IMG/VR virus record: IMGVR_UViG_3300029310_000398
Location: 32,001 to 96,000 of that record
Length of the DNA stretch: 64,000 nt
Direction: 5' to 3' (one strand)
From: a virus
The notes below the pieces were generated by a model, which had not been told where the DNA came from, did not search any database, and saw only the letters and a program-made list of their open reading frames with translations. A program made the translations under genes and the position numbers. Positions 1-49,729 of the stretch are shown here, piece after piece. Within the stretch, counting starts at the first letter, position 1. The number at the start of each line of letters is the position of its first letter.

Positions 1-2
1 AG

Positions 3-5544: not shown

Positions 5545-5567
5545 ATGTGTGCAATCATTGCACACAT
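5545..5567. repeat. palindrome copy 1 (ATGTGTGCAATCATTGCACACAT)
   Basis: Perfect inverted repeat with the same GTGTGCAAT-S-ATTGCACAC core as six other copies. Confidence 0.85.
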
Positions 5568-5644: not shown

Positions 5645-5814
5645 GGTATACAATCCTGTTATTTCAGAGCCTCATACACCCGACACAGGCATATTCAGTT
5701 CCCTGAAGTGCTGGCACTACCTCTCACATGATTAACCAGCCAACAAAGTCTTCCTGTTTCACCGACGGACATCCATCTCCACAGGCGTAAATTCCGGTTA
5801 TACCGTCCGTACTC
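5645..5814 (-). repeat. structured element, copy A2 (full length), immediately 3' of tRNA-Ser
   Basis: About 85-90% identical to 41733-41956. It contains the core module, a GUGAGAGG-loop hairpin and a GAAAUAAC-loop hairpin. Confidence 0.75.
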
Positions 5815-5821
5815 GTTTTTG

Positions 5822-5909
5822 TGGCGGAGAGAGTGGGATTCGAACCCACGGATGCTTTCACATCGCCGGATTTCAAGACCGGTGCTTTCGACCACTCAGC
5901 CATCTCTCC
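5822..5909 (-). tRNA. tRNA-Ser (anticodon UGA)
   Basis: The minus strand reads GGAGAGATGGCTGAGTGGTCGAAAGCACCGGTCTTGAAATCCGGCGATGTGAAAGCATCCGTGGGTTCGAATCCCACTCTCTCCGCCA. It has a 7-bp acceptor stem, a CTTGAAA anticodon loop, a long variable arm, a GTGGG-TTCGAAT-CCCAC T arm and an encoded CCA. Confidence 0.9.
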
Positions 5910-16252: not shown

Positions 16253-16536
16253 GTTCGCAAAGAGGTGATGTCTATATCTTGTATGTGGAAGGTGAACATG
16301 ATAGAAGGACAAATTGGAAGTATTTGGAAACATTAGAATTGTAACCTTTCTGCGTAAAACTTTGTGAAAATCGGACAAAATTAACTGTTTTCAGCAGTAT
16401 ATTCTGCTATAGATTGCTTTCGCAATAAGACACATTGCACAAAATAATTTCACAATTATCCGTCAAAATGACGGTAAATTTTGCACAAAAGAGCATGAAA
16501 ACCGCAAAATCAACGAACGCTTAATACAGGAGCCCC

Positions 16537-36800: not shown

Positions 36801-39247
36801 GTCAGAGTGAATGTGAGGTTACTCACAACACTATCTTCGGAGGTCTTCGTCACCTGAACAGCTCCAACCTTGAGCTTATTCTGGATAGACACCGAAGTCT
36901 TATTGTTGATGTTTACGGTAACATTAACAGGGTTGACCACCTGATAGTATGCCGGTGTATTGACCTCGGACACAGTATAGCTTCCGATAAGAACATTGGA
37001 GAAGGTTGCAATACCTGAGGCGTTGGTTGTCGCGTACAGGTCAACGGCAGTACCATCAACGGAAGTACCCTGCAGGCGGAAACGCACGTTGGCGATTTTA
37101 CCATCTTCGGAAGCCTTTGTTACCTGCACGGAGCCGCGTGCCAGCTTGTTGCTGACAGTTGCCTGTGTGGTGTTGTTATACTTTACAGTGACGTTCTGTG
37201 CGGACACAGGAGCATACTGTTTACCAGTATTTACCTCGGTCAGCGTATATGTACCGATAAGCACATTTGAGAACGTAGCTACACCGCTGGCATTGGTGGT
37301 AGCTGTCAGATTTACAGCCTGACCGGAAGTGGATGTGCCCTTCAGATTAAACTGAACTCCGCTTACTTTTCCATCTTCGGAGGTCTTTGTGACAGTCACG
37401 TTGCCGCGAGCCAATTTATTTTCGAATGTTTTGCTTACAGACGTATTAGGCGTCGAAAGCGCGAACGTCTGGCTGACAGGGGCTACATATCTTCCGGGCG
37501 TATTTACCTCGGAAAGAACATAGTTGGAACCCAAGGGGACATTGGAGAACGTAGCCTTGCCGTTCGCATCTGTGGTCGCAGACAGATTTACAGCATCTCC
37601 CGCGTAAGATGTTCCCGTCAGTGTAAAAGTGAACCCTTGCAGAACTCCATCTTCCGATGTCTTCGTTACCTGCACGGTACACCGAGACACTTTGTTCTGG
37701 AAGGAGACACTCGCCGTGCCTCCAATCGTAACTGTCGCAGTCTGAACCCGATTCACAGCGTAGTATCCTAACGGCGAAGATTCTGTAATCGTGTAAGTTC
37801 CGGGCTGCAGGTCTGTAATGCTGATTTTGCCGGATGCATTTGTCTTAAAGAGCCGGTTATATCCGTTCGGCCCAGTTACAGTAAAGCTGACGTTAGAAAT
37901 GTTTTTCCCATTTTCAGACGTCTTTGTGATGTCCAAATTACCGGTTGTTTGCGTCACCTTCGCCCGCACATAACAAGTAACGGGGTCAGGCCAACCGTTC
38001 AAAGCAACACAATGCTGCTTGCTTCCTCCCGCAACGAGAAGGTAAGCATTGATGCTGTCGGGGTCAATCACGTTACCATAAGACACATATGAAGCATATC
38101 CATTCAGCAAACTCTTTGCCGCTTCTGATGTTGCTGTTATTGTCAGATTGTATCCAACCTTACTCGTCGACAAACCAGCCAACCCAAATGTGAAATTGTC
38201 AAAATTCGGCAGAACCCTGTTTGAATCATACTTAGTTGCTGTCCACACTGAACCATTCCACGCAAGTTCAATATCTTTTCTGAAATCTGTGGGACGGTAG
38301 ACAGCAAAACTCGGAATCTCTGCCTGCTGGTTAATCTTCTCCCAGATATAATCATGTGCTGCCTTGATAGGTTCAGCAACCTCCGGGTCATAAGCATGAC
38401 CGGGACCCACAAACAGGTCGCTCAGGTCGCTGTAGCCGCCAACGATTTCCCAGATAACCTCCTGCGTAGCACACCACGCATAGGTGCCGTTGCCAGCATA
38501 CCAGAGCAACGTCGAGTCATCTGCGCCACCCCAGCCATAGGCAAGCGCAAGGCGAACTCTATCATCCCCCCAATAGCTGCTGGCATCGACGGAGGTGCCA
38601 GAGCCGGGTGCGCCCTTGTGAGGCTCAATACAGTAAGCTGGCTGTCCATTGAAGAATTTCTCAACAGCACTGGAATAGGGGGCAAACTCGGCCATCCACT
38701 TCCTGTTATAACCCATATCGAGGCCGGTCGTAATAGTTCCCGATGCGCGAGCGGGAGCCCTCCTCGGACCAGAAGAGTTTTGCGGCGAGCCATACAAAGG
38801 CGTAACGCTCACGGGAGTATCTTCACCGGCATAGGGGTCCGAAAGACCTTCTTCATCATCAAAACTCTCACCATCAGGGTTAGATATTTCCAATGAGGAT
38901 TCCGAGTCTGGAGAACTATTGTCCTTCACCTCATCGGGAGACTTACTATCATCCGCTGTACTGTCGCTGCCATCTTGAGAGGATTCCTCGCCACTTCCGA
39001 CAGCATCTTCCGTGTTTCCTTCGCCTTTTTCGTCAGGCACTCCGATAGATACTGTATCTTCTGCCGATGCACCATCACCCCCTTCCACCATACCGACATC
39101 AGCAATTATCTCATTGCCGATGTCGTCCACACCAGTAATCTCCTCCCCCGCAGCAAATGCAGACGTAGGGAGCGTACCGGTCATCATCACAAGCACCAGC
39201 AGCATCGCAACGATACTGCGAAGTTTCTTGAAACGACTAATCTTCAC
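27881..39247 (-). CDS. giant sortase-anchored adhesin (about 3788 aa), paralog of 20469-26099
   Basis: Same architecture as gene 1: signal peptide (M)KISRFKKLRSIVAMLLVLVMMTGTLPTSAFA, AYCIEP / CATQEVIW thioester motifs, about a dozen Cna-B-like repeats and 18 repeats ending (V/A)FE...H.D..D..Q. C-terminal SPKTGD + hydrophobic helix + KRKKNK. I prefer the GTG start at 39247 (GAGGAG 9 nt upstream); the track ATG is at 39307. Confidence 0.95.
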   Translation of the reverse strand: MKISRFKKLRSIVAMLLVLVMMTGTLPTSAFAAGEEITGVDDIGNEIIADVGMVEGGDGASAEDTVSIGVPDEKGEGNTEDAVGSGEESSQDGSDSTADDSKSPDEVKDNSSPDSESSLEISNPDGESFDDEEGLSDPYAGEDTPVSVTPLYGSPQNSSGPRRAPARASGTITTGLDMGYNRKWMAEFAPYSSAVEKFFNGQPAYCIEPHKGAPGSGTSVDASSYWGDDRVRLALAYGWGGADDSTLLWYAGNGTYAWCATQEVIWEIVGGYSDLSDLFVGPGHAYDPEVAEPIKAAHDYIWEKINQQAEIPSFAVYRPTDFRKDIELAWNGSVWTATKYDSNRVLPNFDNFTFGLAGLSTSKVGYNLTITATSEAAKSLLNGYASYVSYGNVIDPDSINAYLLVAGGSKQHCVALNGWPDPVTCYVRAKVTQTTGNLDITKTSENGKNISNVSFTVTGPNGYNRLFKTNASGKISITDLQPGTYTITESSPLGYYAVNRVQTATVTIGGTASVSFQNKVSRCTVQVTKTSEDGVLQGFTFTLTGTSYAGDAVNLSATTDANGKATFSNVPLGSNYVLSEVNTPGRYVAPVSQTFALSTPNTSVSKTFENKLARGNVTVTKTSEDGKVSGVQFNLKGTSTSGQAVNLTATTNASGVATFSNVLIGTYTLTEVNTGKQYAPVSAQNVTVKYNNTTQATVSNKLARGSVQVTKASEDGKIANVRFRLQGTSVDGTAVDLYATTNASGIATFSNVLIGSYTVSEVNTPAYYQVVNPVNVTVNINNKTSVSIQNKLKVGAVQVTKTSEDSVVSNLTFTLTGTSDAGTTVSMTAKTDAKGVATFSNVPIGSKYTVQEANTPARYVVPAVQAGVTVKVNDTTKLSFRNDLARGNLRVTKTSEDGLVSGVKFHLEGTSTSGAKVSLDATTNAQGIAEFKDVLVGNSYVLTEVGTAARYVVPAAQNGITITVGKTTDAAVYNKLARGTVTVTKTAEDGLVSGIKFRLTGTAGNGDTVDMTATTNAKGIATFSDVLIGENYTIQEVGTAEKYIVPDVVSGIVVTLNKTTNANVYNKLARGTVSVTKTSEDGIVEGIKFRLTGTSAQGQAVDMTAVTNAAGVATFENVLVGYNYSLEEVDTAARYVIPAVKDGIDVKLDKTTTASIHNVLKKWSVTVTKRDNETTTAQGNATLKGAVYGLYDGDELVKQYTTDANGKFTTDVYICGDNWTIKEIVPSVGYLLDDSVYHVGAEAKNYVIEINAAPDLGVTERVIKGYIKIFKHSDVGATGLEEALPTGKVTPEVGAEFDVYLKAAGSYANAKTTDRDHIVVGEDGYATTKALPYGTYIIDQTKDFESADMLHGFEVTISENGKTYFYVLNDRPYYASVRIVKLDAMDNTLIPYSGAEFQIYDPDGNLVSLKNGLSTVSTFKTDAEGKLITPEELPFGRGYTLVEVTAPKGYKLDSTPIEFNVDAENTTMEGDKKVIVVTAKDSPVTPEIKTVAKGAAGEKTMEPLTSVTIKDTVSCTDVIPGKTYTVNGYLVLKSTGEPLLDGSGKRITATNTFVAGDNFNGSTELTFTFDASLIAGDAVVVFDTLHRDGVEVASHKDIADADQTVAFYAPEIKTSANNPDGNVKVVDPSVGVSVVDTVSYKHLTPGHKYVLSGQMMDKDTQQPAKDDNGNFIVGETTFTPSTTSGTVDVVFTFDATEIAGVQLVAFEKLYHVAISAEVPVATHEDIDDADQTVTVEAPEITTNAVNAADGTKFLEAQYSVKIKDTVSYEKVVEGHTYLLTGKVFDKTTGEFLKDTAGNDITGTTTFTPTAKTGTVDVEFIFDASELYGHTLVIFEKLSYRGTVLTVHEDDADANQTVKVYNPEIGTTAIDGEGTGKSVDPAKNVVIKDTIAYEHLTIGQEYTITGTVMNKRTGEPVVSGGRTVTVTNTFTPTASKGSTEMIFTFDASGLDGDSLVVYEELYFRASDTTPCAVHKDINDEGQTVAVNTPSIHTTINESISLNNYFEPLNEITITDTVTYTDLVPGHTYKVMGNLVSKDTGDVIRDGNGKLVAGETEFVPTSKDGSVDVTFTLNASILYGQSVIAFESLYYHNTIIAEHKDLTDEKQEAIFFAPELSTKALNDDGNTNLIDPAKGTHIVDTVNYRHLTPDHEYTIIGKLMDKDTGKALLDAKGNEITGKTTFTPERVAGTVNVEFTFDASNMAGKTLVVFEYLYFNKNEEIPAGKHTDINDLKQSLTFNTPEIKTSAKNAEGNSKFFDPKSSVKLIDTVTYSGLSKGHEYTVSGTLMNKQTGAPVLNSNGTPVTGSTTFTARSVNGKVKVEFTFDASQLYGQSLVVFEELAFNGTIIAEHKDFEDDNQTVKINTPSISTSAENTDGGNNLVDAAKKVSITDTVTYSHVTPDHEYTLVGRLMNGETGEELPNTVVSIKFTPKRTFGSVDMTFTLNASQLAGKSVVVFEELFFNEDDTEPCAKHTDLRDEAQTVIVTEPSIGTTMNASPDKNQFFVSSLATVLVDTVNYHNLIPGHTYVAEGRLMDKATGRVLVGGNGEITGKTIFVPTSSDGSVDVYFTFDSSALFGKTVVAFETVFYDGNIIAKHEDINDVDQSATFYMPELSDTTAENGEGGGKFIDAAGNVVIRDTVKYEHLSAKHDYKLRGTLVYQTSGEPVLLNGMPIVVEKSFTAKKAYGSIDMEFTFDATGMQGKDIVVFEELFYEQQSVAVASHKDLDDEGQTVTVAKPTVKTTASNKADGSKMLEPEKKVTILDTVSFTGLIDGHTYKVSGTLMDKATGKPVVDANGDAITVEKTFKAKDASGSIDVEFTFAATGLFGKDLVVFEKIFYNDTEIASHENINDKGQTVQVHNPNITGTTAVGTLDGGKFIDPAANVKITDTVAYEHLSTGHEYTLHGTLMNKETGEPIKNGGAEVVFEQTFTPSATSGSVDMQFTFNASFMKGKDIVVFEEIYFNADDTEPVAVHKDIDDGSQTVSVTNPEVQTVAVNKGDNGKVFEPDTTVTLKDTVFYNNLIVGHKYTVTGTLMDEETGKAIKDIDGNIVTASVEFVPEAACGTVDVEFTFAATELYGKTIVAFEKLLFNGTVIASHEDINDEEQTTTVHNPEIMRTIAVSAVDEGKLIDASETSIINDTVVYRHLSTGHTYTLRSSLVDKTTGEPVLNNGVPVVAEMQFAPESTAGSVVAAIEFDASSVKGRDIVVFEELFFNADDKNPVAAHKDIEDADQTVTVVKSSIKTSAENAADSTKVFEPTADVVLKDTVTYEGLIVGHTYKVVGTLMDKATGKPVENTEGKTITAEATFTPEAESGSVVVEFKFDARTFFGRTLVVFENLYYGNSVVASHKDINDEDQSVDVKAPIIVGTTATNKADGGKLFDPAEKVVLVDTVKYDHLSAAHKYTLVGKLMDKASGEAVNDKDGNPVTASTSFTPDALSGSVGVVFEFDGKALAGKDVVVFEYLFYNEGDETALTTHEDLEDAAQTVTFTNPSVKTSASNASTGKKTFSPYEKAELVDTVTYTGLIPGHEYTLVGTLMEKVKTGDKFEGKAVMDKDNKPLTATATFTPEKADSTTTVSFIFSARSVAGKTLVVYEELFYDNMSIAAHADITDEEQTVTVDRIHYRSGPTMSTTATFANGAKSSGYASRLVIVDTVSYSGLTVGQTYTLVGKLMDSQTGVALRDTNDREVTSTLTFTPKTSDGSVDMKFSFNAGNIKGAKIVVFEEMYVGKDVAGTLYLSHTDINDAGQTVTVTVSPKTGDSGIGIYIAIGAIALGAVVVVVVVSTIKRKKNK
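28000..34800 (-). repeat. tandem coding repeats (18 VaFE/ester-bond modules), approximate bounds
   Basis: Eighteen occurrences of the HxDxxDxxQ-type motif at a period of about 125-130 aa. Confidence 0.7.
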
Positions 39248-39354
39248 AATTTCCAGCTCCTCTCGCAAAGTATTTCTTTCGTCCACGTGCCCGTATTTTG
39301 CCCTCAAAGTCGCTACAGGACAACGGATACGACGGACGAGTGTCTACATTTTCT

Positions 39355-39382
39355 ACACTACCAAAATCCGATATTTTGTCAA
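39355..39382 (-). promoter_or_regulatory. promoter of adhesin gene 2 (TTGACAAAATAT...TGGTAGTGT)
   Basis: Minus strand reads TTGACAAAATATCGGATTTTGGTAGTGT. The AAAATTTGCAGCT box lies 9 nt upstream of the -35. Confidence 0.65.
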
Positions 39383-39467
39383 CTACTTGGGAGCTGCAAA
39401 TTTTCAGCGCTGCGTTAGTCTTCGCAATTCTAAGCGCACATACGTTCTGAACATTGCACAAAAAAAG

Positions 39468-39494
39468 AAAGTGTGCAATCATTGCACACTTTCT
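39468..39494. repeat. palindrome copy 2 (GAAAGTGTGCAATCATTGCACACTTTC), downstream of parB
   Basis: Perfect inverted repeat with A/T flanks. It could act as a bidirectional terminator. An extra half-site CATTGCACA lies 7 nt upstream. Confidence 0.85.
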
Positions 39495-39528
39495 TTACTC
39501 TGTTTTCGGTTATATTTAAGGCAGGAAT

Positions 39529-40797
39529 TTACTCGCCAATCATGGCATCATAGAGCGTTTCGGCCAGAGCCATCAGCAGCTCCTTGTTTCCAGAGCGAAC
39601 GACCTCATTGAGCCGCTGGCGGACCTCATTCTCGTTTCCACCGAGAATCTCAGGTTCATCGAAAACAAAGGTGACTCGAACGCCCTTGCTGGGTGCGGTC
39701 TTAGCTTTACCATCAATGGTAGCCCAAGACAGGCGCTCCTGCGGCCTCACAACGGCAGGCTGAGTAGCGGCTGCGGTATCATCCGCAACGGCATCAGGAG
39801 CGTTTGTAGAGCCCTCCTCGACCTCTGTATCAGGATAGTCGTACCCTACGGTTTCCACGGGGCCAGCATCGTGTGAGGCATCGTGAGAACCACCGCCAGA
39901 AGGTTCGTAGCCTTCGGGATAGCCACCGGAAGACAGCTCGTTGTCACGCACCTCATCAGGCACGGGCTCAGACGCCTGAGGCCTATCCTCAGTGGAAGCT
40001 GCAGGCATCTCCATGGGACGCCCCTCGTAGGTGTAGCGGATAGCCTTGGCATCAACCTCGTTCAGCGTCATGATGGTGTCGGCAGCCATCTTGTCCGCAA
40101 CCTCAGCCTGCTGTTCATCTGTCAGGAAAGAGAGCTGATAGGCCGCCGTGACCGTCATACGCCCCGCATCACAGAGAGACAGCACAGCATCGGAGCAGTC
40201 GTTCAGCTTGATATACATATCCAGCATACGGGCAGAGATACCAAACCTCTTGCACGCCACCTCGCTGGCACGGCCCAATACGGGGTCGTCAGCACTGTCG
40301 TTGGTACGCCGGCCCAGCTTGATGTTCTGCTCCGTCTTGACCGTATCCGTCCACAGCTTAAAAGACCTCGCCTTCTCGGACGGCAGCCACTCAGGACGCT
40401 GGATATTTGTCTCCACCATGATTTTACTTGCGGTCAGATTGTCAATATTGGTGACAAGGCAAGGCACTTCACGGAGCCCCGCATCAGTGCTTGCACTGAA
40501 CCGACGGTGTCCAGCGATGATTTCAAAATCGCCGGCAATGGTCGGATGCGGACGCACAATGAGGGGCACGGTAACGCCGCTGTTGCGGATGCTGTCAACC
40601 ATAGAGTCGTAGTCGCTATTCTTGACCACGAGGAAGGTATGCCCCTCGAACGGATGCAGCTTATTCAGCGCAATGTCCTGCACACGCCGGTCATCGACGC
40701 GCATGGCATCCATAGGGTTGTTGCCGAGCAGGGCGTCCAGCCCGTTGCCCTTGATAGCCGCATTCGCGGCCAGCTTATCTTTCAGCGAATTTGCCAT
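39529..40797 (-). CDS. parB: ParB/Spo0J-family partition protein with a long acidic C-terminal extension
   Basis: ParB N-terminal domain (LHPFEGHTFLV...SIRNSGVTVPLIVRPH...FEIIAGHRRFSA). Overlaps parA by 16 nt. Confidence 0.85.
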   Translation of the reverse strand: MANSLKDKLAANAAIKGNGLDALLGNNPMDAMRVDDRRVQDIALNKLHPFEGHTFLVVKNSDYDSMVDSIRNSGVTVPLIVRPHPTIAGDFEIIAGHRRFSASTDAGLREVPCLVTNIDNLTASKIMVETNIQRPEWLPSEKARSFKLWTDTVKTEQNIKLGRRTNDSADDPVLGRASEVACKRFGISARMLDMYIKLNDCSDAVLSLCDAGRMTVTAAYQLSFLTDEQQAEVADKMAADTIMTLNEVDAKAIRYTYEGRPMEMPAASTEDRPQASEPVPDEVRDNELSSGGYPEGYEPSGGGSHDASHDAGPVETVGYDYPDTEVEEGSTNAPDAVADDTAAATQPAVVRPQERLSWATIDGKAKTAPSKGVRVTFVFDEPEILGGNENEVRQRLNEVVRSGNKELLMALAETLYDAMIGE

Positions 40798-41570
40798 TTC
40801 GAAATGACCTCCTTTGCAACGTCCATATAGAGCTCACCGACACGACTTCCCTTCTTGGCTACACAGGTGCGATGCTCGGTCGGTGCGTCGGATACTTCCT
40901 TGAGGTAGGGAATCATTGTCTCCAGTACCACGCCATCGCCCAGCGCTTCCGTCAGGTCATCCCGCGTAGTCTTCACGTTGCTGCGCCGCGTATCCGCACG
41001 GTTGATGAGGATACCGTCGATGGTCAGCTTGGGGTTCAGAGACTTCTGAATGCTGTCGATGGTACTCAGCAGGTCTGCCAAACCGTTGACAGCATATTCC
41101 TCAGCCTCCACAGGAATGATGATACTGTCCGCAGCAGTCAGAGCATTGGATGTCAGCAGGTCGAGGCTGCCCTTGCAGTCGATAATGCAGACGTCATAGT
41201 CACACTGGCTGCCAACGGCAGAGAGCGCTTTTGCCAGCACACGGTTTCCGTCAGCTACATTCGCCAGAATGGTCGGCGCAGAGGAGAGTGCAGGAGACGC
41301 AGGGATGAAGTCCACCTGCTCCTTTTCGTTGTGCCGAATAAACGAACTCAGGTTGATGGGCATATTGTATGCCGTGAAGTAAATGAGTTCATTGGTCGTA
41401 GTGGGAGTATTGTCTTGCACGAAGCCCAGCGTGTCGGAAAGATTCCGCTGTGGGTCGATGTCTGCCAGCAGCACTTTCTGCCCAAGCCGAGCCAGTGCCG
41501 CGCCCAAGTTCACAGCGGTGGTGGTCTTTCCTACTCCGCCTTTTTGGTTACATACTGCTACGATTCTCAT
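40782..41570 (-). CDS. parA: ParA/Soj-family partition ATPase
   Basis: Deviant Walker A MRIVAVCNQKGGVGKTTTAVNLG, 262 aa. Confidence 0.95.
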   Translation of the reverse strand: MRIVAVCNQKGGVGKTTTAVNLGAALARLGQKVLLADIDPQRNLSDTLGFVQDNTPTTTNELIYFTAYNMPINLSSFIRHNEKEQVDFIPASPALSSAPTILANVADGNRVLAKALSAVGSQCDYDVCIIDCKGSLDLLTSNALTAADSIIIPVEAEEYAVNGLADLLSTIDSIQKSLNPKLTIDGILINRADTRRSNVKTTRDDLTEALGDGVVLETMIPYLKEVSDAPTEHRTCVAKKGSRVGELYMDVAKEVISKWQIR

Positions 41571-41606
41571 ATCGTTTTCATCCTTTCAGGTGTTTTTCTG
41601 TCTCCG

Positions 41607-41633
41607 AAAAGTGTGCAATGATTGCACACTTTT
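41607..41633. repeat. palindrome copy 3 (AAAAGTGTGCAATGATTGCACACTTTT), in the parA leader
   Basis: Perfect 27-nt palindrome, followed by further T residues. Confidence 0.85.
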
Positions 41634-41732
41634 TTTTGCTTGATTTAGGAATGTGTTGACTCCTCCTACCCCTCAAGGAGTGGGCTTGCGGCGGGAAAAG
41701 TTAAATTATTTTGTCATTCAGATAATCCGTAA

Positions 41733-41956
41733 GGTATACAACCCTGTTATTTCAGGGCCCTATATACCTGTAAGAACCCAAGATTTTGGTATACAACCCT
41801 GTTATTTCAGGGCCTTATATACCCGACACAGGCATATTCAGTTCCCCAAAGCGCTGGCGTCACCTCTCACGTAATTACCAGCTAACAGAGTCTTCCTGCT
41901 TCCATGATGACCGTGCATCTCCACAGGCGTAAATTCCGGTTATACCGTCCGTACTC
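41733..41956 (-). repeat. structured element, copy B (full length with a duplicated GAAAUAAC hairpin), upstream of parA
   Basis: Core GAGTACGGACGGTATAACCGGAATTTACGCCTGTGGAGATGCACGGTCATCATGGAAGCAGGAAGAC, a GCTGG...ACGTGAGAGG...CCAGC hairpin, and 2x GGTATA..CCCTGAAATAACAGGG..TATACC. Confidence 0.75.
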
Positions 41957-41971
41957 AGTTTTGGTTTCTTG

Positions 41972-42000
41972 GAAAAGTGTGCAATGATTGCACACTTTTC
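41972..42000. repeat. palindrome copy 4 (GAAAAGTGTGCAATGATTGCACACTTTTC), abutting the stop of the vWA gene
   Basis: Perfect 29-nt palindrome. Confidence 0.85.
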
Positions 42001-44925
42001 TTACTCAGCGTCCTTCTTACGACGGCCAATCACAGGAGCCACCAGCAGCGCAGCGATGGAGACACCGGCCACAGCGAACACATACAGCCACCCGAAGGAA
42101 GTGTCACCCGTCTGAGGCGCATGAGGAACAGTCTCAGGGGAAGGCGTGCTGGGAGTGGTGTCATAATAGTAGTGACCGCCGCTGGGCTTATTTTCAGGCT
42201 TGGTATCAGGCTTATCTTCCGGCTTGTCCTCAGGCTTATCTTCGGGCTTGGTGATAGGCTTATCATCCTCATTCTTACCATCATCGCCGGGATTTTCAGG
42301 TTCCGCAGGGCGGTTGTAGCGGAGAATGATTTTATTCTCGCCACCCTCGGCAATCACGATAACCTCATAGTTGGCGGAAGTGAAGGTGTACGTACCATCC
42401 TTGAACGTGGTGTTCTTGGTAATGCCAGCAGCCCCGATGATGTCGCCAATATCGGCCTCAAGGATTTCCTCCGTCTGACCGTCCAGCTTACCATCGGTGT
42501 AATACTCATGGACAACCGTGAACTTTGTAGGGGCCTCGGTGTCTGTAGTACGGTCGTAGCGCAGAACCATGACGTTCTCAGCACCATCGACAACGACCAT
42601 CTTTGCGGGAGTGGCAGAGGTAAAAGAGTATGCTTTCTTGTTGTAGGCAGTCATCTTAAAAATGCTCTCGGAGTCAACTTCAGTATTCTCTTCAGCGGAC
42701 TGAGCCACGACAGCGACACCATCCATCTCACCATTGGTGTAATACTCATGCCGGATGGTATAAGGAACCATTGCGGGAACAACATCAACCGTGCGGTCAT
42801 AGCGAACAACGATAGTATTATCGCCATCAACAGTCAGGGTAACGGAAGTGGGCGTGCAGGAGGTGAAGCCGTATGTCTCTTCGTTGTAGGTGGTGCAGCG
42901 GGTCACGCTGTCAGCGTCCAGCACAGTACCCTCGGCGCCGGCAGACTCAACTACTGTCTCGCCATCGAGTTCGTTGTTGGTATAATACTCATGCTTGATG
43001 GTGTAGTTCACCTCAACAGGAGTGACCTCAACAGTGCGGTCATAGCGCAGGACGATAGTATTTTCCTGACCATAATCCAGCGTCAGCTCAGAGGGAGTGC
43101 AGCCGGTATACTCATACTCGCCATCCTGATAGTTCAGAACCTTGACAATGGCATCCTCGGATACCACATATCCGGAAGCGTTTTCCTCTTCGATAGTGGT
43201 AGCGCCATCAAATACATCATTTGTGTAGTATTCGTGCCGAATAGTGTAAACAATGTTGATGTTCACAGGAGGCATAGGAGGCGTGGGAGGAGTCTCGACA
43301 ACACGGTCGTAACGCAGCGTCATGGTTGCGCCCTCAGACACAATCATGACAGAGGGGTCAGCAGAAGTATACCCGTAGGTTTCATCGTTGTATTCGGTAA
43401 TCTTATCCAACGTGAAACTGTCAATCTCAGTACCTTCCTCGGCAGTCTGTGTAACAGTGATGGAGCCGTCCAGTTCACCATTGGTGTAATACTCATGCTT
43501 GATGTTATAGGAAACCTCGACAGGCTCAACGTAGGGCAGATAGCCGCGCACAGTGGGAATATCGAAAGCAATGGTCTTCTCCACGCCGCCGAAGGTATAG
43601 GTCAACACAGCAGAGGGGTTGACATCATAGGCCTTTCCTTCTACGAAACCTTCCTTGTCAGTCTGGAGAGTAATGGGATAGGTTACGGTATAGGAACGAG
43701 TTCCCTTCTCCTCATCTACAGTAGGAGTCACTGCGGTGACGTTCCACGTCAAACCATCGGAAGTCTTTGCGATACCGAAAGCCTCCAACTCAGACACGGA
43801 ACCAAGCTGGATGTAGCTGCCCATGGGTGCCACGACCGTACCGGCGTTGGTGGTCGTCACAATGGAATTGCCGATACTCTTGAACAGGTCGCTCAGTTCG
43901 TTCATGTCCTGCGTAGACAGGTAGTGGTCTGCGTCGGTCGCAACAGCCTTCATGGTGTCCTCGGCATTCTGCTTGCTGGTCTGCTCATTCTTGCCATAGC
44001 CATCCAGAAACACGGTGAAAATCTCAAAACCGGAATCCTTGGCAGCCTGCGCCTGAACGATAGCGGGCTGGCCGTTATCTGCATAGACCTTGTTAGTCAG
44101 AGTTGTGCGCTCATCATGCTCGCAGGTGACATCCAGAGAAGCATAGTGGTTGTCCTGCGTGTACTCGAAGTCGGAACCACTGCCAACGATGGAATTACGG
44201 TCGAAGCTGGTAACGAGGTTGCTGGCAGTGCCGCTGGACTTATTCCAGTTGTGGCGCCGGCCAGACTCGGTGCAGCCAGACCAATCAGCCGTACCGGTCA
44301 GACGATAGCTGTACGTGGGCATACCATCAGAGAACAGGACGATGACCTTCTGTGCAGAGCTCTTATCGGCAGCAAATACCTGCTGGGCAGCATAAATACC
44401 GGCCTGCACATTGGTGCCACCATCATAGATATCACTTACAGCAGTCGTCGCCGTGGTAACAGCCTCAGAGACCTTAGCCGTGTCGTTGGTCAGCCAACAG
44501 TGACTCCAGTATTTCGTACCAAAACTCACAACGGAGACCTGATTGCCGGCAGCAATGCCGTCTTTATCGAGGATGCCGGAGACAAACTCGTTCACAGCAG
44601 CTCTGGTATTAGTGCGCCGGTCGCCATCCATACTATTGGAGCGGTCGATGCACAGCACGATATGAACGGGCTTCACGGGCTCCAGTTCGACCAAATCGGA
44701 AGTAGTGACAGTCATCGTCACATCAAAGTCATTGCCAGTGGTGTGCGCTGCAGTCTCATGGACAGTAACCATACCGTCCGTGGACTTCATCAGGATACCC
44801 TGCTTCACAACCTCACCATCACGCACAGTGCTGGCGGCGTATGCCTTAATACCCACGCAGCTCAGGAGAACGCAGAGGAGTAAAAAGGCAGAGAGAATAC
44901 GCTTAAAGTTCGTAATCGTCTTCAT
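42001..44925 (-). CDS. sortase-anchored surface protein with an N-terminal vWA domain and six ~85-aa repeats
   Basis: Signal peptide. MIDAS DRSNSMDG (DxSxS). Repeats (V.Y.I.HEYYTNG..DG...V......G). P/K/E-rich stalk (PEDKPEDKPEDKPDTKPENKP). C-terminal APQTGD + helix + RRKKD. Confidence 0.9.
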   Translation of the reverse strand: MKTITNFKRILSAFLLLCVLLSCVGIKAYAASTVRDGEVVKQGILMKSTDGMVTVHETAAHTTGNDFDVTMTVTTSDLVELEPVKPVHIVLCIDRSNSMDGDRRTNTRAAVNEFVSGILDKDGIAAGNQVSVVSFGTKYWSHCWLTNDTAKVSEAVTTATTAVSDIYDGGTNVQAGIYAAQQVFAADKSSAQKVIVLFSDGMPTYSYRLTGTADWSGCTESGRRHNWNKSSGTASNLVTSFDRNSIVGSGSDFEYTQDNHYASLDVTCEHDERTTLTNKVYADNGQPAIVQAQAAKDSGFEIFTVFLDGYGKNEQTSKQNAEDTMKAVATDADHYLSTQDMNELSDLFKSIGNSIVTTTNAGTVVAPMGSYIQLGSVSELEAFGIAKTSDGLTWNVTAVTPTVDEEKGTRSYTVTYPITLQTDKEGFVEGKAYDVNPSAVLTYTFGGVEKTIAFDIPTVRGYLPYVEPVEVSYNIKHEYYTNGELDGSITVTQTAEEGTEIDSFTLDKITEYNDETYGYTSADPSVMIVSEGATMTLRYDRVVETPPTPPMPPVNINIVYTIRHEYYTNDVFDGATTIEEENASGYVVSEDAIVKVLNYQDGEYEYTGCTPSELTLDYGQENTIVLRYDRTVEVTPVEVNYTIKHEYYTNNELDGETVVESAGAEGTVLDADSVTRCTTYNEETYGFTSCTPTSVTLTVDGDNTIVVRYDRTVDVVPAMVPYTIRHEYYTNGEMDGVAVVAQSAEENTEVDSESIFKMTAYNKKAYSFTSATPAKMVVVDGAENVMVLRYDRTTDTEAPTKFTVVHEYYTDGKLDGQTEEILEADIGDIIGAAGITKNTTFKDGTYTFTSANYEVIVIAEGGENKIILRYNRPAEPENPGDDGKNEDDKPITKPEDKPEDKPEDKPDTKPENKPSGGHYYYDTTPSTPSPETVPHAPQTGDTSFGWLYVFAVAGVSIAALLVAPVIGRRKKDAE

Positions 44926-44966
44926 AATTCTTTTGTCCTTTCAAGTTTGAAAAAGTATGCCACCCT

Positions 44967-44991
44967 AAAGTGTGCAATGATTGCACACTTT
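44967..44991. repeat. palindrome copy 5 (AAAGTGTGCAATGATTGCACACTTT), in the leader of the vWA gene
   Basis: Perfect inverted repeat 42 nt upstream of the start codon. Confidence 0.85.
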
Positions 44992-45091
44992 TCAATTCGC
45001 CTCTCTTAGAGACTACCCCTTTTGCGTCTCGATAGGCGGTTCATAAAAATTTGCTCCCGCCTTATGGAAATGGTACAGTCACCGCTTCTTC

Positions 45092-45199
45092 AATCCGAAG
45101 CTATCTCTCACATAGAGTTCGGAATACACGGCAATTTCCTGCTTCAATGACGAACATCCGTCTCCACAGGCGTAAATTCCGGTCATACCATCCGTACTT
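45092..45199 (-). repeat. structured element, copy C (core + GUGAGAGA hairpin)
   Basis: AAGTACGGATGGTATGACCGGAATTTACGCCTGTGGAGACGGATGTTCGTCATTGAAGCAGGAAATT plus TCCGAA..ATGTGAGAGA..TTCGGA. The stems covary relative to copies A2 and B. Confidence 0.7.
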
Positions 45200-45213
45200 A
45201 AAATCGCTCTCTG

Positions 45214-45242
45214 GAAAAGTGTGCAATCATTGCACACTTTTC
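45214..45242. repeat. palindrome copy 6 (GAAAAGTGTGCAATCATTGCACACTTTTC)
   Basis: Perfect 29-nt palindrome. Confidence 0.85.
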
Positions 45243-45244
45243 GT

Positions 45245-45418
45245 TTACCCCCAGAACCCAACCTGACTGTAGTAGAAGAAGTCTCTCATAAGCTGGTTTC
45301 GGTTTGCGGGAGTGTCGGGCATCGTGTAACCGTCGCGGTAGTTACAAAGGAACAGCTCACCGTCCTCGACGCCGCACATGATGCCGACATGGTCATCTCT
45401 TGCGAAGATTGTTACCAA
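45245..45418 (-). CDS. possible small ORF (57 aa, TTG start)
   Basis: AGGAGG 8 nt upstream of the TTG. Translation MVTIFARDDHVGIMCGVEDGELFLCNYRDGYTMPDTPANRNQLMRDFFYYSQVGFWG. Not in the track, and it is antisense to track ORF 45221-45421. Confidence 0.4.
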   Translation of the reverse strand: MVTIFARDDHVGIMCGVEDGELFLCNYRDGYTMPDTPANRNQLMRDFFYYSQVGFWG

Positions 45419-45442
45419 TAACGTGTCCTCCTTTCTTCTTGG

Positions 45443-45904
45443 TTAAGCGTTGCTGTAGGCGGTCTGCACCACCACAGGCTCCGCAGGAACTTCAGGCGCC
45501 ATATTGTTTTCGACCCATTTATCATGAGACTCCATGACAGGGCCTGTGATAGTCAACCCCTGCGGCCACATCGGGTACTTGCGGTCCTTGTCAGGAATAC
45601 CACGGACGATAAGCGCAGGATTCACAGCGAACTCCCAGCCCTCCTTATCCTTGCGTACCACATAGATAAAGCCGTATTTCTGCAGGGCGGTAATCCACGA
45701 GGTAACGCTGCGGAGTTTTCCGCCAGTCGCCTCACACAGCGCATCGCGCCGACAGTATACGATATTCTCGTCGTTCATTTGTCCGGCGAGGTACATCACA
45801 ATCGTCCATGCACCCTTGGACTGAAGCGTCAGTGCGACGATTTGCTCGATATAGTAGTTGTTGATGGAATATGCGGTCTTAGATTTATCACACATTTCGC
45901 TCAC
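45443..45904 (-). CDS. winged-helix DNA-binding protein (153 aa), possible replication/maintenance factor
   Basis: LRSVTSWITALQKYGFIYVVRKDKEGWEFAVNP has a wHTH recognition-helix plus wing pattern, paralogous to modules in the upstream gene. Confidence 0.65.
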   Translation of the reverse strand: MSEMCDKSKTAYSINNYYIEQIVALTLQSKGAWTIVMYLAGQMNDENIVYCRRDALCEATGGKLRSVTSWITALQKYGFIYVVRKDKEGWEFAVNPALIVRGIPDKDRKYPMWPQGLTITGPVMESHDKWVENNMAPEVPAEPVVVQTAYSNA

Positions 45905-45908
45905 CCCC

Positions 45909-46922
45909 TCAGGACGTCTTTTCTTCTTGTTCTTCCTGCTCCGCCTGCCGAAGCACTTGGTTTTTCCAAATGGCGGAGGGAATTTTCTGTTTCTTCAGCG
46001 GGACGCCCCCAAACATGACGTCTGCATATGGGCCAGTGATGCCGATATCCGGTGGGAATGCACTCCGTTTCAAGCCGGAATACGTTCCTCGCCAGAAAAT
46101 ACGGTGGTTCACGGCGTATGTACCAGCCCCTCCCCTGCCGCCACGCCTCAACGTTACGACATATCCGTATTTTTTCAAATCGCTCATGGCACTGCAGAGC
46201 ATCCGATATCCGATACCCGTTTCCTTCTCGATTTCAGAGTAGGAACAGGTAATGGCGTTGTATTTATCCATGTGTTCTACGAGATATAGCAGCGTGGCCG
46301 TGGCAGACGGGTTTTCCATTGTCAGCCCACACAGGTGTCCAATAAAATTGTCATTCATCTGAAAGAACTTACTGAATGGACAATGTGCCCTGCTGCTGAC
46401 GACCACTTCCTCAGGGGTTCCATTCTTGAAGACCTCCTGCATAACCGCCGCCTGCATCTCTTTGGCCTGCTCGTCAAGGGAGATAACTACATTTGCCTTG
46501 AGCTGGCAGTAGTATTTCCCATTACCCCACGAATGCCATGTGATGTCGCCGTTCAGCACGTATATCGTGCCGTAGCCAGAGCGAAGAGTCATGAGCCAGC
46601 CGCCATTTCGAAGCTCTGCGATGCAACTGTAAATCGTCCGTGTCGTCATCTTCAGGCAGTCGGCGAGAACTCTCGCCGAGCATATGCAAGCATTCTCACC
46701 TCCCGCATTCGCTCTCAACGCCAGATATGTCACGAACGCACTGGGAGAGTTGTGCGCCAGCGCTGAAAGCTCCGCACTTTTCTCCTCGTTTATCTGCGTC
46801 CATGCGTAGTACACAGGAGCTTCTGTGCGGGACGGACCAGCGACAGCGCGAGGGTCTTCCCTGTTCTCTGTGCCGTTCAAATTGTCATAAGTCACGCTTA
46901 ATCCCTCCTGTTTCTTAATCAC
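45909..46922 (-). CDS. double winged-helix protein (337 aa), possible replication initiator
   Basis: Two wHTH-like modules (TRTIYSCIAELRNGGWLMTLRSG... and YRMLCSAMSDLKKYGYVVTLRRGG...). A strong promoter and an AT-rich region lie upstream. Confidence 0.7.
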   Translation of the reverse strand: MIKKQEGLSVTYDNLNGTENREDPRAVAGPSRTEAPVYYAWTQINEEKSAELSALAHNSPSAFVTYLALRANAGGENACICSARVLADCLKMTTRTIYSCIAELRNGGWLMTLRSGYGTIYVLNGDITWHSWGNGKYYCQLKANVVISLDEQAKEMQAAVMQEVFKNGTPEEVVVSSRAHCPFSKFFQMNDNFIGHLCGLTMENPSATATLLYLVEHMDKYNAITCSYSEIEKETGIGYRMLCSAMSDLKKYGYVVTLRRGGRGGAGTYAVNHRIFWRGTYSGLKRSAFPPDIGITGPYADVMFGGVPLKKQKIPSAIWKNQVLRQAEQEEQEEKTS

Positions 46923-46928
46923 AACGTT

Positions 46929-46957
46929 ATACTAACACGAACATAAAAAAATGTCAA
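46929..46957 (-). promoter_or_regulatory. promoter of the Rep-like operon (TTGACA-17-TAGTAT)
   Basis: The core at 46935-46960 is identical to 8254-8279. Confidence 0.75.
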
Positions 46958-47427
46958 GTCTATATTGGCAAAAATCAGATATTTTGGCAAGTATTTTCAT
47001 GTTAAATTTGAAAAGTGTCGTTCAGTTTCATATTGGTGTGCAGTGACGCCGCAGGATAAAAGGGACAGGCACAGACAACACCTCCTACGCCTGTAAAACA
47101 CACCCGTTTTTATCATGAACCGACTTCTCAGGTCAATATGAAATTTGAGTACATGATAAAATTTTCCGAAAAATCCGGAAACCGTTGTGCCACAACGGAT
47201 TGCTGGATTGGAAAAAATTGGCTCTCTCTATATATATTTACCTTATCTAAAATAAAAGCACTAACTTTTTGTGCGTTTTCAGCGTTCGGAAATGCGGTTT
47301 TGCAGGCTCAGGCAGGGGACGATGAGCAGGGGTTTTCCGGTCGAACGGGAGGCCTCTGCGAAGCTGCGGGAGCTTCGCTCCCGTGCCTGAAAAAAACGAA
47401 AACAGGAAATTTTCCTCGCAAGAGGCA

Positions 47428-47455
47428 TTGACAAAATATCGCCTTGTGGTAGTAT
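47428..47455 (+). promoter_or_regulatory. promoter TTGACAAAATAT...TGGTAGTAT
   Basis: TTGACAAAATATCGCCTTGTGGTAGTAT. A TTGACAAAATAT family member. Confidence 0.7.
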
Positions 47456-49700: not shown

Positions 49701-49729
49701 GAAAAGTGTGCAATGATTGCACACTTTTC
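49701..49729. repeat. palindrome copy 7 (GAAAAGTGTGCAATGATTGCACACTTTTC), between the Rad52-like and primase genes
   Basis: Perfect 29-nt palindrome, and the only copy in the plus-strand operon. Confidence 0.85.

Follow-up and report, generated by a model that had tools for sequence, protein, structure and literature searches.

P1, a palindrome repeated at gene boundaries of gut mobile elements, and its possible kinship with REP-like repeats

Introduction

What is the role of a palindrome that stands seven times between the genes of one replicon? The question was raised by a stretch of 64,000 nucleotides, referred to here as the window (positions 32,001 to 96,000 of the IMG/VR virus record IMGVR_UViG_3300029310_000398), which belongs to a family of Firmicutes-type conjugative plasmids of 120-190 kb. 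The original prediction, made from the sequence of the window, took the palindrome for an operator of a dimeric DNA-binding protein, a partition-type site for ParB or a small mobile palindromic unit, and proposed that the motif be counted genome-wide and in related elements. Here we name the palindrome P1. The repeat itself is real. It is not an ordinary terminator, and it is not clearly the site of the plasmid's ParB either. A REP-like hairpin that is propagated by copying and punctuates transcripts is the reading that we tentatively prefer.

Copies of P1 and their placement in the window

The consensus of P1, derived from the seven copies in the window, is a palindrome of 27-29 bp, (G)AAAA-GTGTGCAAT-S-ATTGCACAC-TTTT(C). 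When up to three mismatches to AAGTGTGCAATSATTGCACACTT were allowed, exactly seven matches were found in the window, at 5545, 39469, 41609, 41975, 44968, 45217 and 49704. None of 100 dinucleotide-preserving shuffles of the window contained any match, and the chance expectation is zero. Six of the seven copies of AAGTGTGCAATSATTGCACACTT are exact, the exception being the one at 5545 with a symmetric double change (ATGTG...CACAT). The core of 19 nt is constant across all seven copies save for the central G or C, and A-run and T-run flanks accompany every copy except that at 5545, both as originally described. The palindrome extents also agree with those given before, apart from the copy at 39464-39496, which is now longer (33 nt). 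On the plus strand of the window the centre base is G in four copies and C in three, and the first six copies lie among minus-strand genes. The P1 copies and the features to which they are related below are as follows.

5545-5567, no strand: P1 copy, symmetric flank variant ATGTGTGCAATCATTGCACACAT; the M1-D module lies on one side and M2/M1-A on the other, and tRNA-Ser is upstream in the minus-strand sense
39464-39496, no strand: P1 copy, perfect palindrome of 33 nt, 35 nt past the parB stop
41607-41633, no strand: P1 copy at the downstream boundary of the B element; the ATG of parA (41570, minus strand) comes 36 nt later
41972-42000, no strand: P1 copy, directly adjoining the stop codon of the gene for the VWA tip pilin (42001-44925, minus strand), with M1-B about 20 nt later
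44967-44991, no strand: P1 copy at the downstream boundary of the C element; the ATG of the pilin gene (44925) comes 42 nt later
45214-45242, no strand: P1 copy, downstream of the wHTH/RepL-like genes and 2 nt past the stop of an inferred minus-strand ORF of 58 aa (read from the sequence), with M1-C about 20 nt later
49701-49729, no strand: P1 copy with plus-strand genes on both sides, 22 nt past a stop (49679) and 47 nt before a primase-like ATG (49777)
39529-40797: ParB gene
45443-46922: two wHTH/RepL-like proteins
41893-41955, minus strand: M1 module (B copy), corresponding to the conserved 5' portion of the structured RNA that comes after P1
5478-5540, 5745-5815 and 45138-45200: other M1 copies
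5822-5909, minus strand: tRNA-Ser(TGA), upstream of M1-A in the place held by P1 at other M1 copies
41733-41825, minus strand: M2, two tandem hairpin units within the B element, immediately upstream of parA
about 5645-5680: third M2 unit

The placement of P1 is strictly at gene boundaries. All seven copies are intergenic in a window of which ORFs cover approximately 90%. In the syntenic relative L049 every P1 copy also lies between genes, and the boundary calls given here rest on the external gene calls for that relative. Two antisense ORFs that ran over P1 copies, a product of greedy ORF picking, were rejected as mis-calls in favour of the external calls. Where P1 separates co-directional genes in the window, it is found 0-35 nt past stops and 36-47 nt ahead of starts. 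As consensus sigma-70-like promoters are found only at the divergent head (46929-46957 and 47428-47455), and P1 stands between co-directional genes, the copies are located inside transcription units.

Distribution of P1 among mobile elements

Each plasmid of the family carries 8-9 copies of P1, and on the one contig that was mapped six of nine copies are found within approximately 10 kb around rep/parAB. The 23-mer of P1 also occurs in an unrelated family of ICE-like elements and in Mu-like phages of Bacteroidota and their satellites, where two units in tandem, 21 bp apart, occupy a divergent promoter region. Human-gut metagenomes contain it in abundance as well. Exact matching against 185,579 species genomes returned 27 stretches, with at most four per contig and all in mobile-element contexts. 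The loci compared (27 genome, 20 viral and more than 119 metagenome loci) represent three unrelated context groups, in which the palindrome is the only common sequence and neither neighbouring DNA nor protein is shared; most of the non-plasmid copies were retrieved with patterns demanding exact arms, which introduces an ascertainment bias. The idea of a small mobile palindromic unit fits much of this evidence, namely the presence of P1 in unrelated plasmids, ICE-like elements and phages, and the centres that are uniform across a lineage (see below).

When the ORFs lying no more than 3.5 kb from the site in 52 context groups were clustered all against all, no protein family spanned the three unrelated groups. 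The two largest clusters obtained were artefactual ORFs translated across repeated DNA. Megablast of positions 39300-47000 against plasmid and phage collections gave no match to near-identical DNA, and 15-mers of the palindrome were absent from the papers searched. Among the genome, viral and metagenome matches there were no repeat-spacer (CRISPR-like) arrays of P1, only the tandem copies 21 bp apart. At the Rfam gathering thresholds only the tRNA was matched, and sensitive Rfam scans of 41560-42020 and five loci gave nothing significant for P1. The 3' hairpin consensus of the Rfam motif TD-2 (RF03162) of Treponema denticola, GAAAAGUGUGC...GCACACUUUUC, is nearly that of the P1 arms and flanks; this match covers the hairpin alone and lacks significance (18 bits, with a gathering threshold of 48.7; E = 4.2), the rest of TD-2 being absent. 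TD-2 itself is an uncharacterised multi-copy motif (PMC1950547).

Related ICEs harbour sister palindromes, P2 with 11-12 copies in 15 kb and P3 with 10 copies in 21 kb. In L052, a relative without a repeat family, unique hairpins are found at the same boundaries. P2 and P3 are almost absent from IMG/VR, and therefore the wide spread of P1 is not general to such families.

Variation and joint evolution of the copies

In independently retrieved relatives the arms and the A/T flanks of P1 are constant, and changes are almost confined to the three central bases, which vary by lineage. No compensatory change was seen in the arms across clades with 71-100% ParB identity, whose members were retrieved through ParB and not through the motif. 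In the 71% ParB clade all P1 copies carry the same asymmetric centre, AT-S-GT, in both orientations (two and two). Similarly, both units of each phage pair have a common centre, and the mismatches of the second unit recur across phage groups that have no alignable intergenic DNA around the pair. The copies within a lineage evolve together. The centre base flips between G and C in near-identical plasmids, a signature of hairpin-loop inversion. The variation fits a triloop, as the changes fall almost only on the three positions that form a minimal loop.

P1 sits at mosaic junctions. Twelve loci with one common upstream gene have at least four unrelated continuations, which start no more than about 6 nt from the palindrome. 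The 71% ParB clade lacks the C element but retains both P1 copies, approximately 50 nt apart.

The P1 hairpin and the M1 RNA

The RNA hairpins predicted for P1 in the window have 10-17 paired bases, free energies of -13 to -25 kcal/mol and z-scores of -4 to -7.5, so the stems of 8-12 bp expected originally were an underestimate. Pairing of the flanks beyond A4/T4 has a mean extension of 4.6, compared to 3.8 in a permutation control, a value reached by one of 2000 shuffles. Flank covariation was dropped as a strong sign of a selected longer stem, as the control attributes it mostly to the conserved A4/T4 consensus.

M1 is a structured RNA in the gene sense, with conserved G.U pairs and compensatory changes, and in most plasmid copies it starts 39-55 nt from the start of P1. 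The slot upstream of M1 is occupied by P1 in 13 of 26 units, by the 3' end of tRNA-Ser in five and by another GC-rich hairpin in two; a tRNA or a different hairpin can thus take the place of P1. This resembles tRNA punctuation and the RNase III sites of T7, in which tRNAs or hairpins between genes set and stabilise RNA ends. The T7 sites, however, are approximately 60 nt long with internal loops, whereas the P1 stem, of 13-17 bp, is short for classical RNase III.

P1 as a possible REP-like repeat

The REP/BIME sequences of Proteobacteria, associated with RAYT, are like P1 short hairpin-forming palindromes, extragenic and located at gene boundaries within operons. In them too the sequence is specific to the family, sub-families have imperfections in common and tandem clusters occur now and then, and their effects are exerted both at the RNA level (3'-end protection, attenuation) and at the DNA level. 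P1 likewise is an extragenic hairpin palindrome that is repeated within a replicon and has sub-families. It differs from REP/BIME in being a perfect rather than an imperfect palindrome, in residing on mobile elements instead of chromosomes, in crossing phyla and in being found also in the divergent promoter regions of phages. There is no conserved head of the GTAG type in the P1 consensus, and no associated RAYT gene was seen.

With due reservation, we consider P1 to be a repeated extragenic palindrome of the REP kind that may have become specialised to mobile elements. Its unit of 27-29 bp would copy itself, or be copied, between gene boundaries and between elements. Inside long co-directional units it would form a very stable hairpin of 13-17 bp in the polycistronic RNA and act as punctuation: the hairpin may partly attenuate or pause read-through, and it would leave a protected 3' end on the upstream message and a defined, protected 5' end on the downstream segment, be it mRNA or M1 RNA. 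It might also insulate the cis-acting M1 and M2 modules. Both the RNA-level effect and the copying mechanism are what we infer for P1.

The exact conservation of the arms suggests that a trans-acting factor reads P1 as well; this might be an enzyme of the transposase type, a DNA-binding protein or a nuclease. The search for a mobilising enzyme, RAYT-like or other, gave no candidate, and Pfam scans of 30 window proteins (from 64 kb of an element of 174-191 kb) gave no Y1 transposase. Neither was a clean pair of filled and empty P1 sites found. The mobility of P1 is read from its distribution alone, because no mobilising enzyme and no insertion pair were recovered.

Some observations run against the REP-like reading. 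Elements carry up to about nine copies of P1, compared to hundreds per chromosome in REP families, and the 27 stretches in the species genomes are far from the high chromosomal copy number of REP-style repeats. The tandem pairs of the phages point to a reading of the sequence and are left unexplained by a pure RNA-structure role. The arms lack compensatory change across the ParB clades, the flank pairing is mostly A4/T4 consensus, and the clustering around rep/parAB is not predicted by general punctuation.

P1 as a possible dispersed protein-binding site

The main alternative is that P1 is a dispersed double-stranded binding site of a dimeric, sequence-specific protein, with half-sites GTGTGCA/TGCACAC, A-tract flanks and a free centre of 3-5 bp. 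Such a site would nucleate a partition or silencing complex, or block transcription at gene boundaries. Precedents are known. In cluster A mycobacteriophages (stoperators), among the C1 operators of phage P1 and among the intergenic palindromes conserved in cluster O mycobacteriophages, many near-identical short sites in short gaps between genes are spread over the whole genome and lie inside transcription units. Stoperators differ from P1 in being asymmetric 13-mers in fixed orientation to transcription and bound by a known repressor, whereas P1 is symmetric and shared between unrelated elements, and its asymmetric variants occur in both orientations. Dispersed KorB sites, such as the 12 copies of OB in RK2 (TTTAGC-S-GCTAAA), and the IncC sites described next share with P1 a perfect inverted repeat, of odd or even length, in which the core does not vary and the symmetric flanks are semi-conserved. 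In OB, as in P1, the base at the centre is G or C.

The IncC plasmid R55 has 14 scattered, mostly intergenic inverted repeats of 22 bp with an invariant core; one is located between the parA promoter and the RBS, and all are bound by a ParB with a KorB domain (PMC10954446). SGI1, which is unrelated, has two copies of the IncC site and thereby hijacks the R55-type system (PMC10954446), and in the same way other elements might carry P1 to exploit or mimic the system of the plasmid. P1 resembles R55 parS and RK2 OB in having approximately 10 mostly intergenic copies on a plasmid of about 60-180 kb, and in one copy that would lie between the parA promoter and the RBS. It differs from them in its length of 27-29 bp, in the lineage-wide asymmetric centres, in that no ParB is linked to it outside the plasmid family and in the lack of conservation of its parA-proximal copy.

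In the plasmid itself, ParB or one of the wHTH/RepL-like proteins might be the binder. The ParB of the window has a canonical N-terminal domain with a GHRR box, P1 copies flank the parAB operon on each side, and all plasmid relatives with a ParB at least 71% identical carry P1 or a P1-like variant. Nevertheless, the suggestion of a partition site was weakened. A ParB-profile search of the non-plasmid P1 loci (L001-L047 and metagenome loci of 846 kb) gave no match, and ParB was dropped as a general partner of P1. The parA-proximal copy (41607-41633) is absent in the 71% ParB clade, where an ordinary promoter, TG-TATAAT, stands instead. The M2 tandem repeat is found directly upstream of parA in all clades with a varying number of units. 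From its arrangement M2 is the likelier candidate for a centromere (or an iteron), being the more conventional of the two.

Other features of P1 agree with binding by a dimer more generally. The arms are constant and the centre is variable; the phage pairs are spaced by two helical turns in divergent promoter regions, which favours an operator, and their second unit keeps its imperfections across groups with unalignable surroundings. The clustering near rep/parAB is of the same kind. In 50 contexts gene starts leave the site in 23, mostly 20-60 nt away, and gene ends face it in 24; some contexts have a canonical terminator immediately next to the palindrome, by which termination is already provided. 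Against this, no protein family is common to the three context groups within 3.5 kb, and a co-resident helper is unlikely for plasmids of Firmicutes type and phages of Bacteroidota type. Many copies lie within operons right after stops and far from promoters, and a lineage-wide asymmetric change of the centre is not expected from co-evolution with a symmetric dimer. The isolated half-sites CATTGCACA that had been noted are present, at 16433-16441 and at 39452-39460 (one base from the position first given), yet two extra sites against 0.92 expected are not significant, and they were discarded as evidence of binding. On balance, a binding site of this kind is possible, if doubtful.

P1 as a possible undescribed cis-element shared across phyla, and the significance of the repeat

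It has also to be considered, as an unlikely case, that P1 is an undescribed cross-phylum cis-element of gut mobile elements, either an autonomous mini-palindrome that an unrecognised enzyme propagates or the target of a conserved factor. It would then delimit RNA boundaries and modules open to exchange, whether in plasmids, in ICE-like elements or in phages, and on the plasmids P1 would form a unit with the multi-copy structured RNA M1.

If P1 is propagated by copying or read by a shared factor, it is a common sequence that links gut plasmids, ICE-like elements and phages of two phyla, and it would bear on the exchange of modules and on the subdivision of long conjugation and maintenance operons. 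If it is only a shared hairpin, it cautions that dispersed identical palindromes near parAB need not be parS. The arms, GTGTGCAA / TTGCACAC, provide a simple tag for the abundant, uncharacterised conjugative plasmids of 120-190 kb of gut Clostridia. In addition, work on P1 draws attention to two further unannotated repeats of these plasmids, the M1 structured RNA and the M2 hairpin arrays.

Improbable readings: recombination site, terminator and promoter

P1 could be a crossover or boundary site of site-specific or short-homology recombination that defines exchangeable cassettes, modelled on the pdif/Xer modules of Acinetobacter plasmids or on the boundary sequences of lambdoid phages. A recombinase would act on the arms, and the centre would have to match that of the partner site, being uniform within a lineage and different between lineages. 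Indeed, the centres are uniform within lineages, and P1 is found on both sides of the B element, the C element, the pilin gene and parAB. The content between conserved pairs varies, as in the loss of the C element and the number of M2 units, and mosaic junctions coincide with the edge of the palindrome. Core sites of the lambda-Int type have an overlap region of 7 bp, which an odd-length dyad would fit. However, any element that belongs to a gene should give junctions at the 3' end of that gene, and a near-symmetric centre makes a site without direction. No recombinase was consistently linked to P1 and no reciprocal recombinant pair was found. The arms AAAAGTGTGCA are by inspection unlike the XerC/XerD arms of the dif consensus, and P1 is not an 11-6-11 site with dif-like arms of the pdif/Xer type, although modules flanked by P1 exist. 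We hold a role of P1 in recombination to be improbable.

That the copies are simply efficient bidirectional intrinsic terminators, alike through recent duplication, we hold to be very improbable. The layout of A-tract, hairpin and T-tract fits, class II contexts are flanked by AAAAATAAA...TTTATTTTTT, and the sister family P3 is skewed to convergent regions (four of five, against none of five divergent regions), mostly 5-18 nt past stop codons. The copy at 39464-39496 has a long T-tract on the coding (minus) strand that is kept in the 75% and 71% ParB clades, and it is the sole copy in the window that looks like a true bidirectional terminator. By the usual criterion, a stable stem-loop with a U-rich tract (about six or more U in 8 nt) on the transcribed strand, P1 provides the stem-loop; the U-tract is lacking in most copies and present in 39464-39496. 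Only two of the seven copies pass a terminator scan, which bears out the earlier view that these are not independent ordinary terminators. In 15 of 30 independent contexts the T-rich tail is absent on both sides, and where a single gene end adjoins P1 the T-richer side was downstream once and upstream 10 times, with 10 ties. Furthermore, copies lie 15-47 nt before the starts of co-directional genes that need expression, canonical terminators already adjoin P1 in some contexts, and the sequence is identical across phyla and conserved in arrays of divergent regions.

Least credible is a compact symmetric bidirectional promoter driving the gene 20-60 nt downstream: the centre TGTGC-AATSATT-GCACA can be read as a TRTG-extended -10 hexamer (AATSAT) on both strands with an offset of one base, a two-strand arrangement known from symmetric divergent promoters, the site has an adjacent gene start in the 23 of 50 contexts mentioned above, the phage site lies between divergent operons, and some contexts have a terminator just upstream of P1 and an RBS about 5 nt downstream with no space for another promoter, but the hexamer is without the -12 T, antisense transcripts running into the upstream gene would be a waste, a perfect palindrome of 27-29 bp is not required for a promoter, no -35 enrichment is seen at the proper distance (score 2.6, background 2.4), and Bacteroidota use TAnnTTTG promoters, motifs of which occur beside the phage arrays and not inside them.

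The palindrome in the window

The boundary palindrome P1 is real and highly non-random. When up to three mismatches were allowed, a search of the window for AAGTGTGCAATSATTGCACACTT returned exactly seven sites (5545, 39469, 41609, 41975, 44968, 45217 and 49704), of which six are exact matches and the one at 5545 carries a symmetric double change (ATGTG...CACAT); 100 dinucleotide-preserving shuffles gave no match. The original prediction of seven palindromes at gene boundaries was accurate, apart from its isolated half-sites: such copies of CATTGCACA are present, but their number (two extra matches, 0.92 expected) is not significant. The palindrome has no earlier description in the searchable literature.

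Perfect palindromy extends over 23-33 nt across the copies, the consensus with flanks is (G)AAAA-GTGTGCAAT-S-ATTGCACAC-TTTT(C), and each copy is predicted to fold as RNA with 10-17 paired bases and a 3-nt loop (-13 to -25 kcal/mol). By the external gene calls of L049, a syntenic relative, all copies are intergenic, in a window with ORF coverage of approximately 90%, and they lie 0-35 nt past stop codons and 36-47 nt ahead of the next start codon. The coding content of 45245-45421 is ambiguous: a 58-aa minus-strand ORF with a strong RBS stops 2 nt before the palindrome, and the public gene call in a relative is a 66-aa ORF on the opposite strand starting inside it. The 3' hairpin consensus of Rfam RF03162 (TD-2, uncharacterised, Treponema denticola) resembles the arms and flanks of the copy at 41972-42000 at a non-significant E of 4.2.

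The conjugative element and its family

The window (G+C approximately 51%) is a Gram-positive-type conjugative element encoding a type IV coupling protein, a CHAP/lysozyme hydrolase, a primase-like protein, a topoisomerase, ParA, ParB, two wHTH/RepL-like proteins and a VWA tip pilin.

Features of the window
5478-5540, minus-strand sense, M1 unit (structured RNA module)
5745-5815, minus-strand sense, M1 unit
41893-41955, minus-strand sense, M1 unit
45138-45200, minus-strand sense, M1 unit
5822-5909, minus, tRNA-Ser(TGA) with encoded CCA, followed after 8 nt by an M1 unit
~5645-5680, M2 unit (36-nt hairpin)
41733-41770 and 41788-41825, M2 units in tandem upstream of parA
20469-26099, minus, giant ORF of 1876 aa with tandem repeat units
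27881-39307, minus, giant ORF of 3808 aa with tandem repeat units
46929-46957, minus, near-consensus TG-extended sigma-70-like promoter, divergent region
47428-47455, plus, near-consensus TG-extended sigma-70-like promoter, divergent region

The two giant ORFs, with tandem repeat units of approximately 375 and 276 nt, look like surface adhesins with repeat domains; relatives encode SpaA/TQ-domain proteins at this position. Good sigma-70-like promoters of the window are found only at the back-to-back pair, from which two long co-directional gene arrays diverge with palindromes at gene boundaries within them, and the pair probably heads both punctuated arrays.

Retrieval by ParB and by motif placed the window in a family of IMG/VR contigs of 119-191 kb, two of which (IMGVR_UViG_3300045988 contigs _183830 and _183936) encode ParB proteins 99% and 96% identical to that of the window and carry 8-9 exact copies of P1 each. 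Of the nine copies in _183830, six fall within approximately 10 kb of sequence surrounding rep and parAB, and in L037, a locus from _183936, the copies are spaced as in the window.

A proposed boundary hairpin beside a structured RNA

All functional statements on P1 made here are inferences from sequence, and no single hypothesis covers all of the evidence. Our tentative proposal is that P1 is a REP-like, copy-propagated boundary hairpin that punctuates polycistronic transcripts. Such a hairpin would attenuate read-through, and would define and protect RNA ends, among them those of M1 and of the parAB, pilin and primase-like messages. The invariant arms and the conserved tandem arrays of phages (below) suggest that the sequence itself is read by some factor.

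M1, probably the structured element of the original prediction, is, as modelled, a structured RNA of gene-sense orientation that is highly conserved and present in multiple copies. Almost all of its 32 predicted pairs are kept, with compensatory changes (one pair varies between UA, CG, UG and AU) and a conserved GTGAGAG loop, and several conserved G.U pairs become C.A mismatches if the other strand is read; it matched no Rfam family. M1 heads parAB, the pilin gene and a 132-aa gene, extended units reach approximately 170 nt (e.g., 41790-41955 and 5645-5815), and the start-to-start distance from P1 to M1 is 39-55 nt in most plasmid copies. Among 26 non-redundant units the slot upstream of M1 is occupied by P1 in 13, by the 3' end of a tRNA-Ser in five and by a different GC-rich hairpin in two; the junction of tRNA and M1 is found again in at least four further loci of plasmids. 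Sharing of this slot argues that P1 is transcribed into RNA and is there interchangeable with other RNA structures.

Copying is suggested by the centre of the palindrome. Centre variants are uniform within each lineage, and the centre base is flipped between G and C in near-identical plasmids (G at 41975 of the window and C at 1917 of L037; L048 and L049 at 5734; L006 and L007), a pattern expected of hairpin-loop inversion or re-copying in either orientation and rare by point mutation. Mobility of P1 is likewise inferred, from its distribution. Pairing of the flanks extends for 4.6 positions on average vs. 3.8 when permuted, a modest excess reached in one of 2000 shuffles; strong flank covariation was rejected by this permutation control, the complementarity being mostly the A4/T4 consensus.

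ParB homologs were also used as queries, which avoids the ascertainment bias of motif retrieval. Variation in the relatives so retrieved is almost confined to the three positions required for a minimal loop. The clade with 75% ParB identity to the window (L048/L049) has P1 at every orthologous boundary, and its copy after parB, AAAAAAGAAAT-GTGTGCAGTCGTTGCACAC-ATTTCTTTTTT, keeps the 18-nt arms with loop-adjacent changes and a symmetric flank change. Members of the 71% clade (L057-L060) retain arms and A/T flanks and have AT-S-GT as an asymmetric centre in every copy, found in either orientation with respect to transcription; the copy past the pilin gene is decaying, and the one upstream of parA is missing, with a TG-TATAAT promoter in its place.

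Distribution outside the plasmid family

A scan for the exact pattern in one genome per species (185,579 species) gave 27 stretches, at most four per contig, all in gut metagenome-assembled genomes. Compared as DNA, all that these loci have in common with the window is the palindrome, except for one locus of partial homology and one small ORF; as protein they have essentially nothing in common with it. A small ORF (15-194, plus, as carried in window 1-194) is approximately 70% identical to ORFs of L001, L003 and L008 situated at 135-400 nt from copies of the palindrome; no other protein link was found to their unrelated ICE-like family, in which a large serine recombinase and three tyrosine recombinases were found. 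When the centre was allowed to vary, at least 119 human-gut metagenome loci were obtained, with centres among the matches listed of ATSAT (57 sites), ATGGT (55), ACSGT (9) and ACGAT (2).

The 23-mer also occurs in phages and satellites whose large terminase is nearest to those of Bacteroides and Flavobacterium phages. Here the unit is a tandem pair 21 bp apart (A-run, perfect unit, TT, imperfect unit sTATGcAA-YSR-TTGCACAc, T-run), located in the divergent region between the prohead-protease and terminase genes and adjoined by Bacteroidota-type TAnnTTTG promoter motifs. In L040, a Bacteroidota phage or satellite, a c4-2 antisense RNA (RF02944, 57.6 bits, 1910-1994) lies approximately 150 nt from the array, which suggests an immunity or late-control region. 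Non-plasmid copies were mostly retrieved by exact-arm patterns and each element is represented by parts only; within 3.5 kb of the site no protein family is common to the plasmid, ICE-like and phage contexts.

Alternative readings

A dispersed operator or parS-like protein site is a possible, if doubtful, explanation. Copies are concentrated around parAB, invariant arms flank a centre free to vary, and the imperfection of the second phage unit, 21 bp from the first, is identical across groups. Dispersed ParB sites have a documented precedent in the IncC plasmid R55, where a KorB-domain ParB binds 14 scattered inverted repeats of 22 bp that share an invariant core, one of them between the parA promoter and RBS, and SGI1 hijacks partition with two copies of the repeat (PMC10954446). 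However, all copies of one lineage share the same asymmetric centre, unexpected for a symmetric dimer co-evolving with its sites, and plasmids and phages have hosts of different phyla. That ParB specifically is the reader seems improbable. The ParB encoded in the window is normal in its N-terminal ParB domain, which includes a GHRR box, and divergent in the rest, but a ParB profile found no homolog in any of the non-plasmid loci, among them 846 kb from metagenomes, and the parA-proximal copy is not conserved. Directly upstream of parA all ParB clades have 2-3 tandem copies of M2 (GGTATAnnnnCCCnGAAATAACAGGGTTGTATACC), in variable number, with larger arrays elsewhere on the plasmids (13 copies in L045, nine in L033, eight in L028 and L044); M2 is a candidate centromere or iteron array, and a more conventional centromere candidate than P1.

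We consider it equally improbable that P1 is a recombination or cassette-boundary site. At 12 loci one common upstream gene is followed by at least four unrelated continuations starting within approximately 6 nt of the palindrome, but such junctions would be expected of any element belonging to a gene's 3' end.

Plain terminators are a still less probable reading and leave the family as a whole unexplained. A stem-plus-T-tract scan was passed by only two of the seven window copies, 15 of 30 independent contexts have a T-rich tail on neither side, and of the sites at which exactly one long ORF ends beside P1, one has more T downstream, 10 have more upstream and 10 are tied. P1 is adjoined by gene starts, most of them 20-60 nt off, as often as by gene ends (23 vs. 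24 of 50 contexts), and in two context classes a canonical GC-rich terminator directly adjoins it. The exception is the copy after parB, whose long T-tract is conserved in all clades and which very probably terminates the parAB unit. Least probable is a symmetric bidirectional promoter, for which TGTGC-AATSATT-GCACA offers a possible geometry as a TRTG-extended -10 on either strand but the -35 test gave no support.

Different palindromes in related ICEs

The ICEs L050/L051 and L053, whose genes run integrase-ParA-ParB-Toprim and whose ParB is 39-40% identical to that of the window, carry entirely different perfect odd-length palindromes at about one copy per 1.5-2 kb. P2 of L050/L051, GGTGGAACC-S-GGTTCCACC, occurs 11-12 times in 15 kb, once inside parB. 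P3 of L053, GAGGCTCCC-N-GGGAGCCTC, occurs 10 times in 21 kb, mostly 5-18 nt past stop codons, and occupies none of five divergent and four of five convergent regions. No repeated palindrome was found in L052, L054 and L055; the genes of L052 are followed by three unique, differing hairpins. P2 and P3 are nearly absent from IMG/VR, and the wide spread is therefore special to P1.
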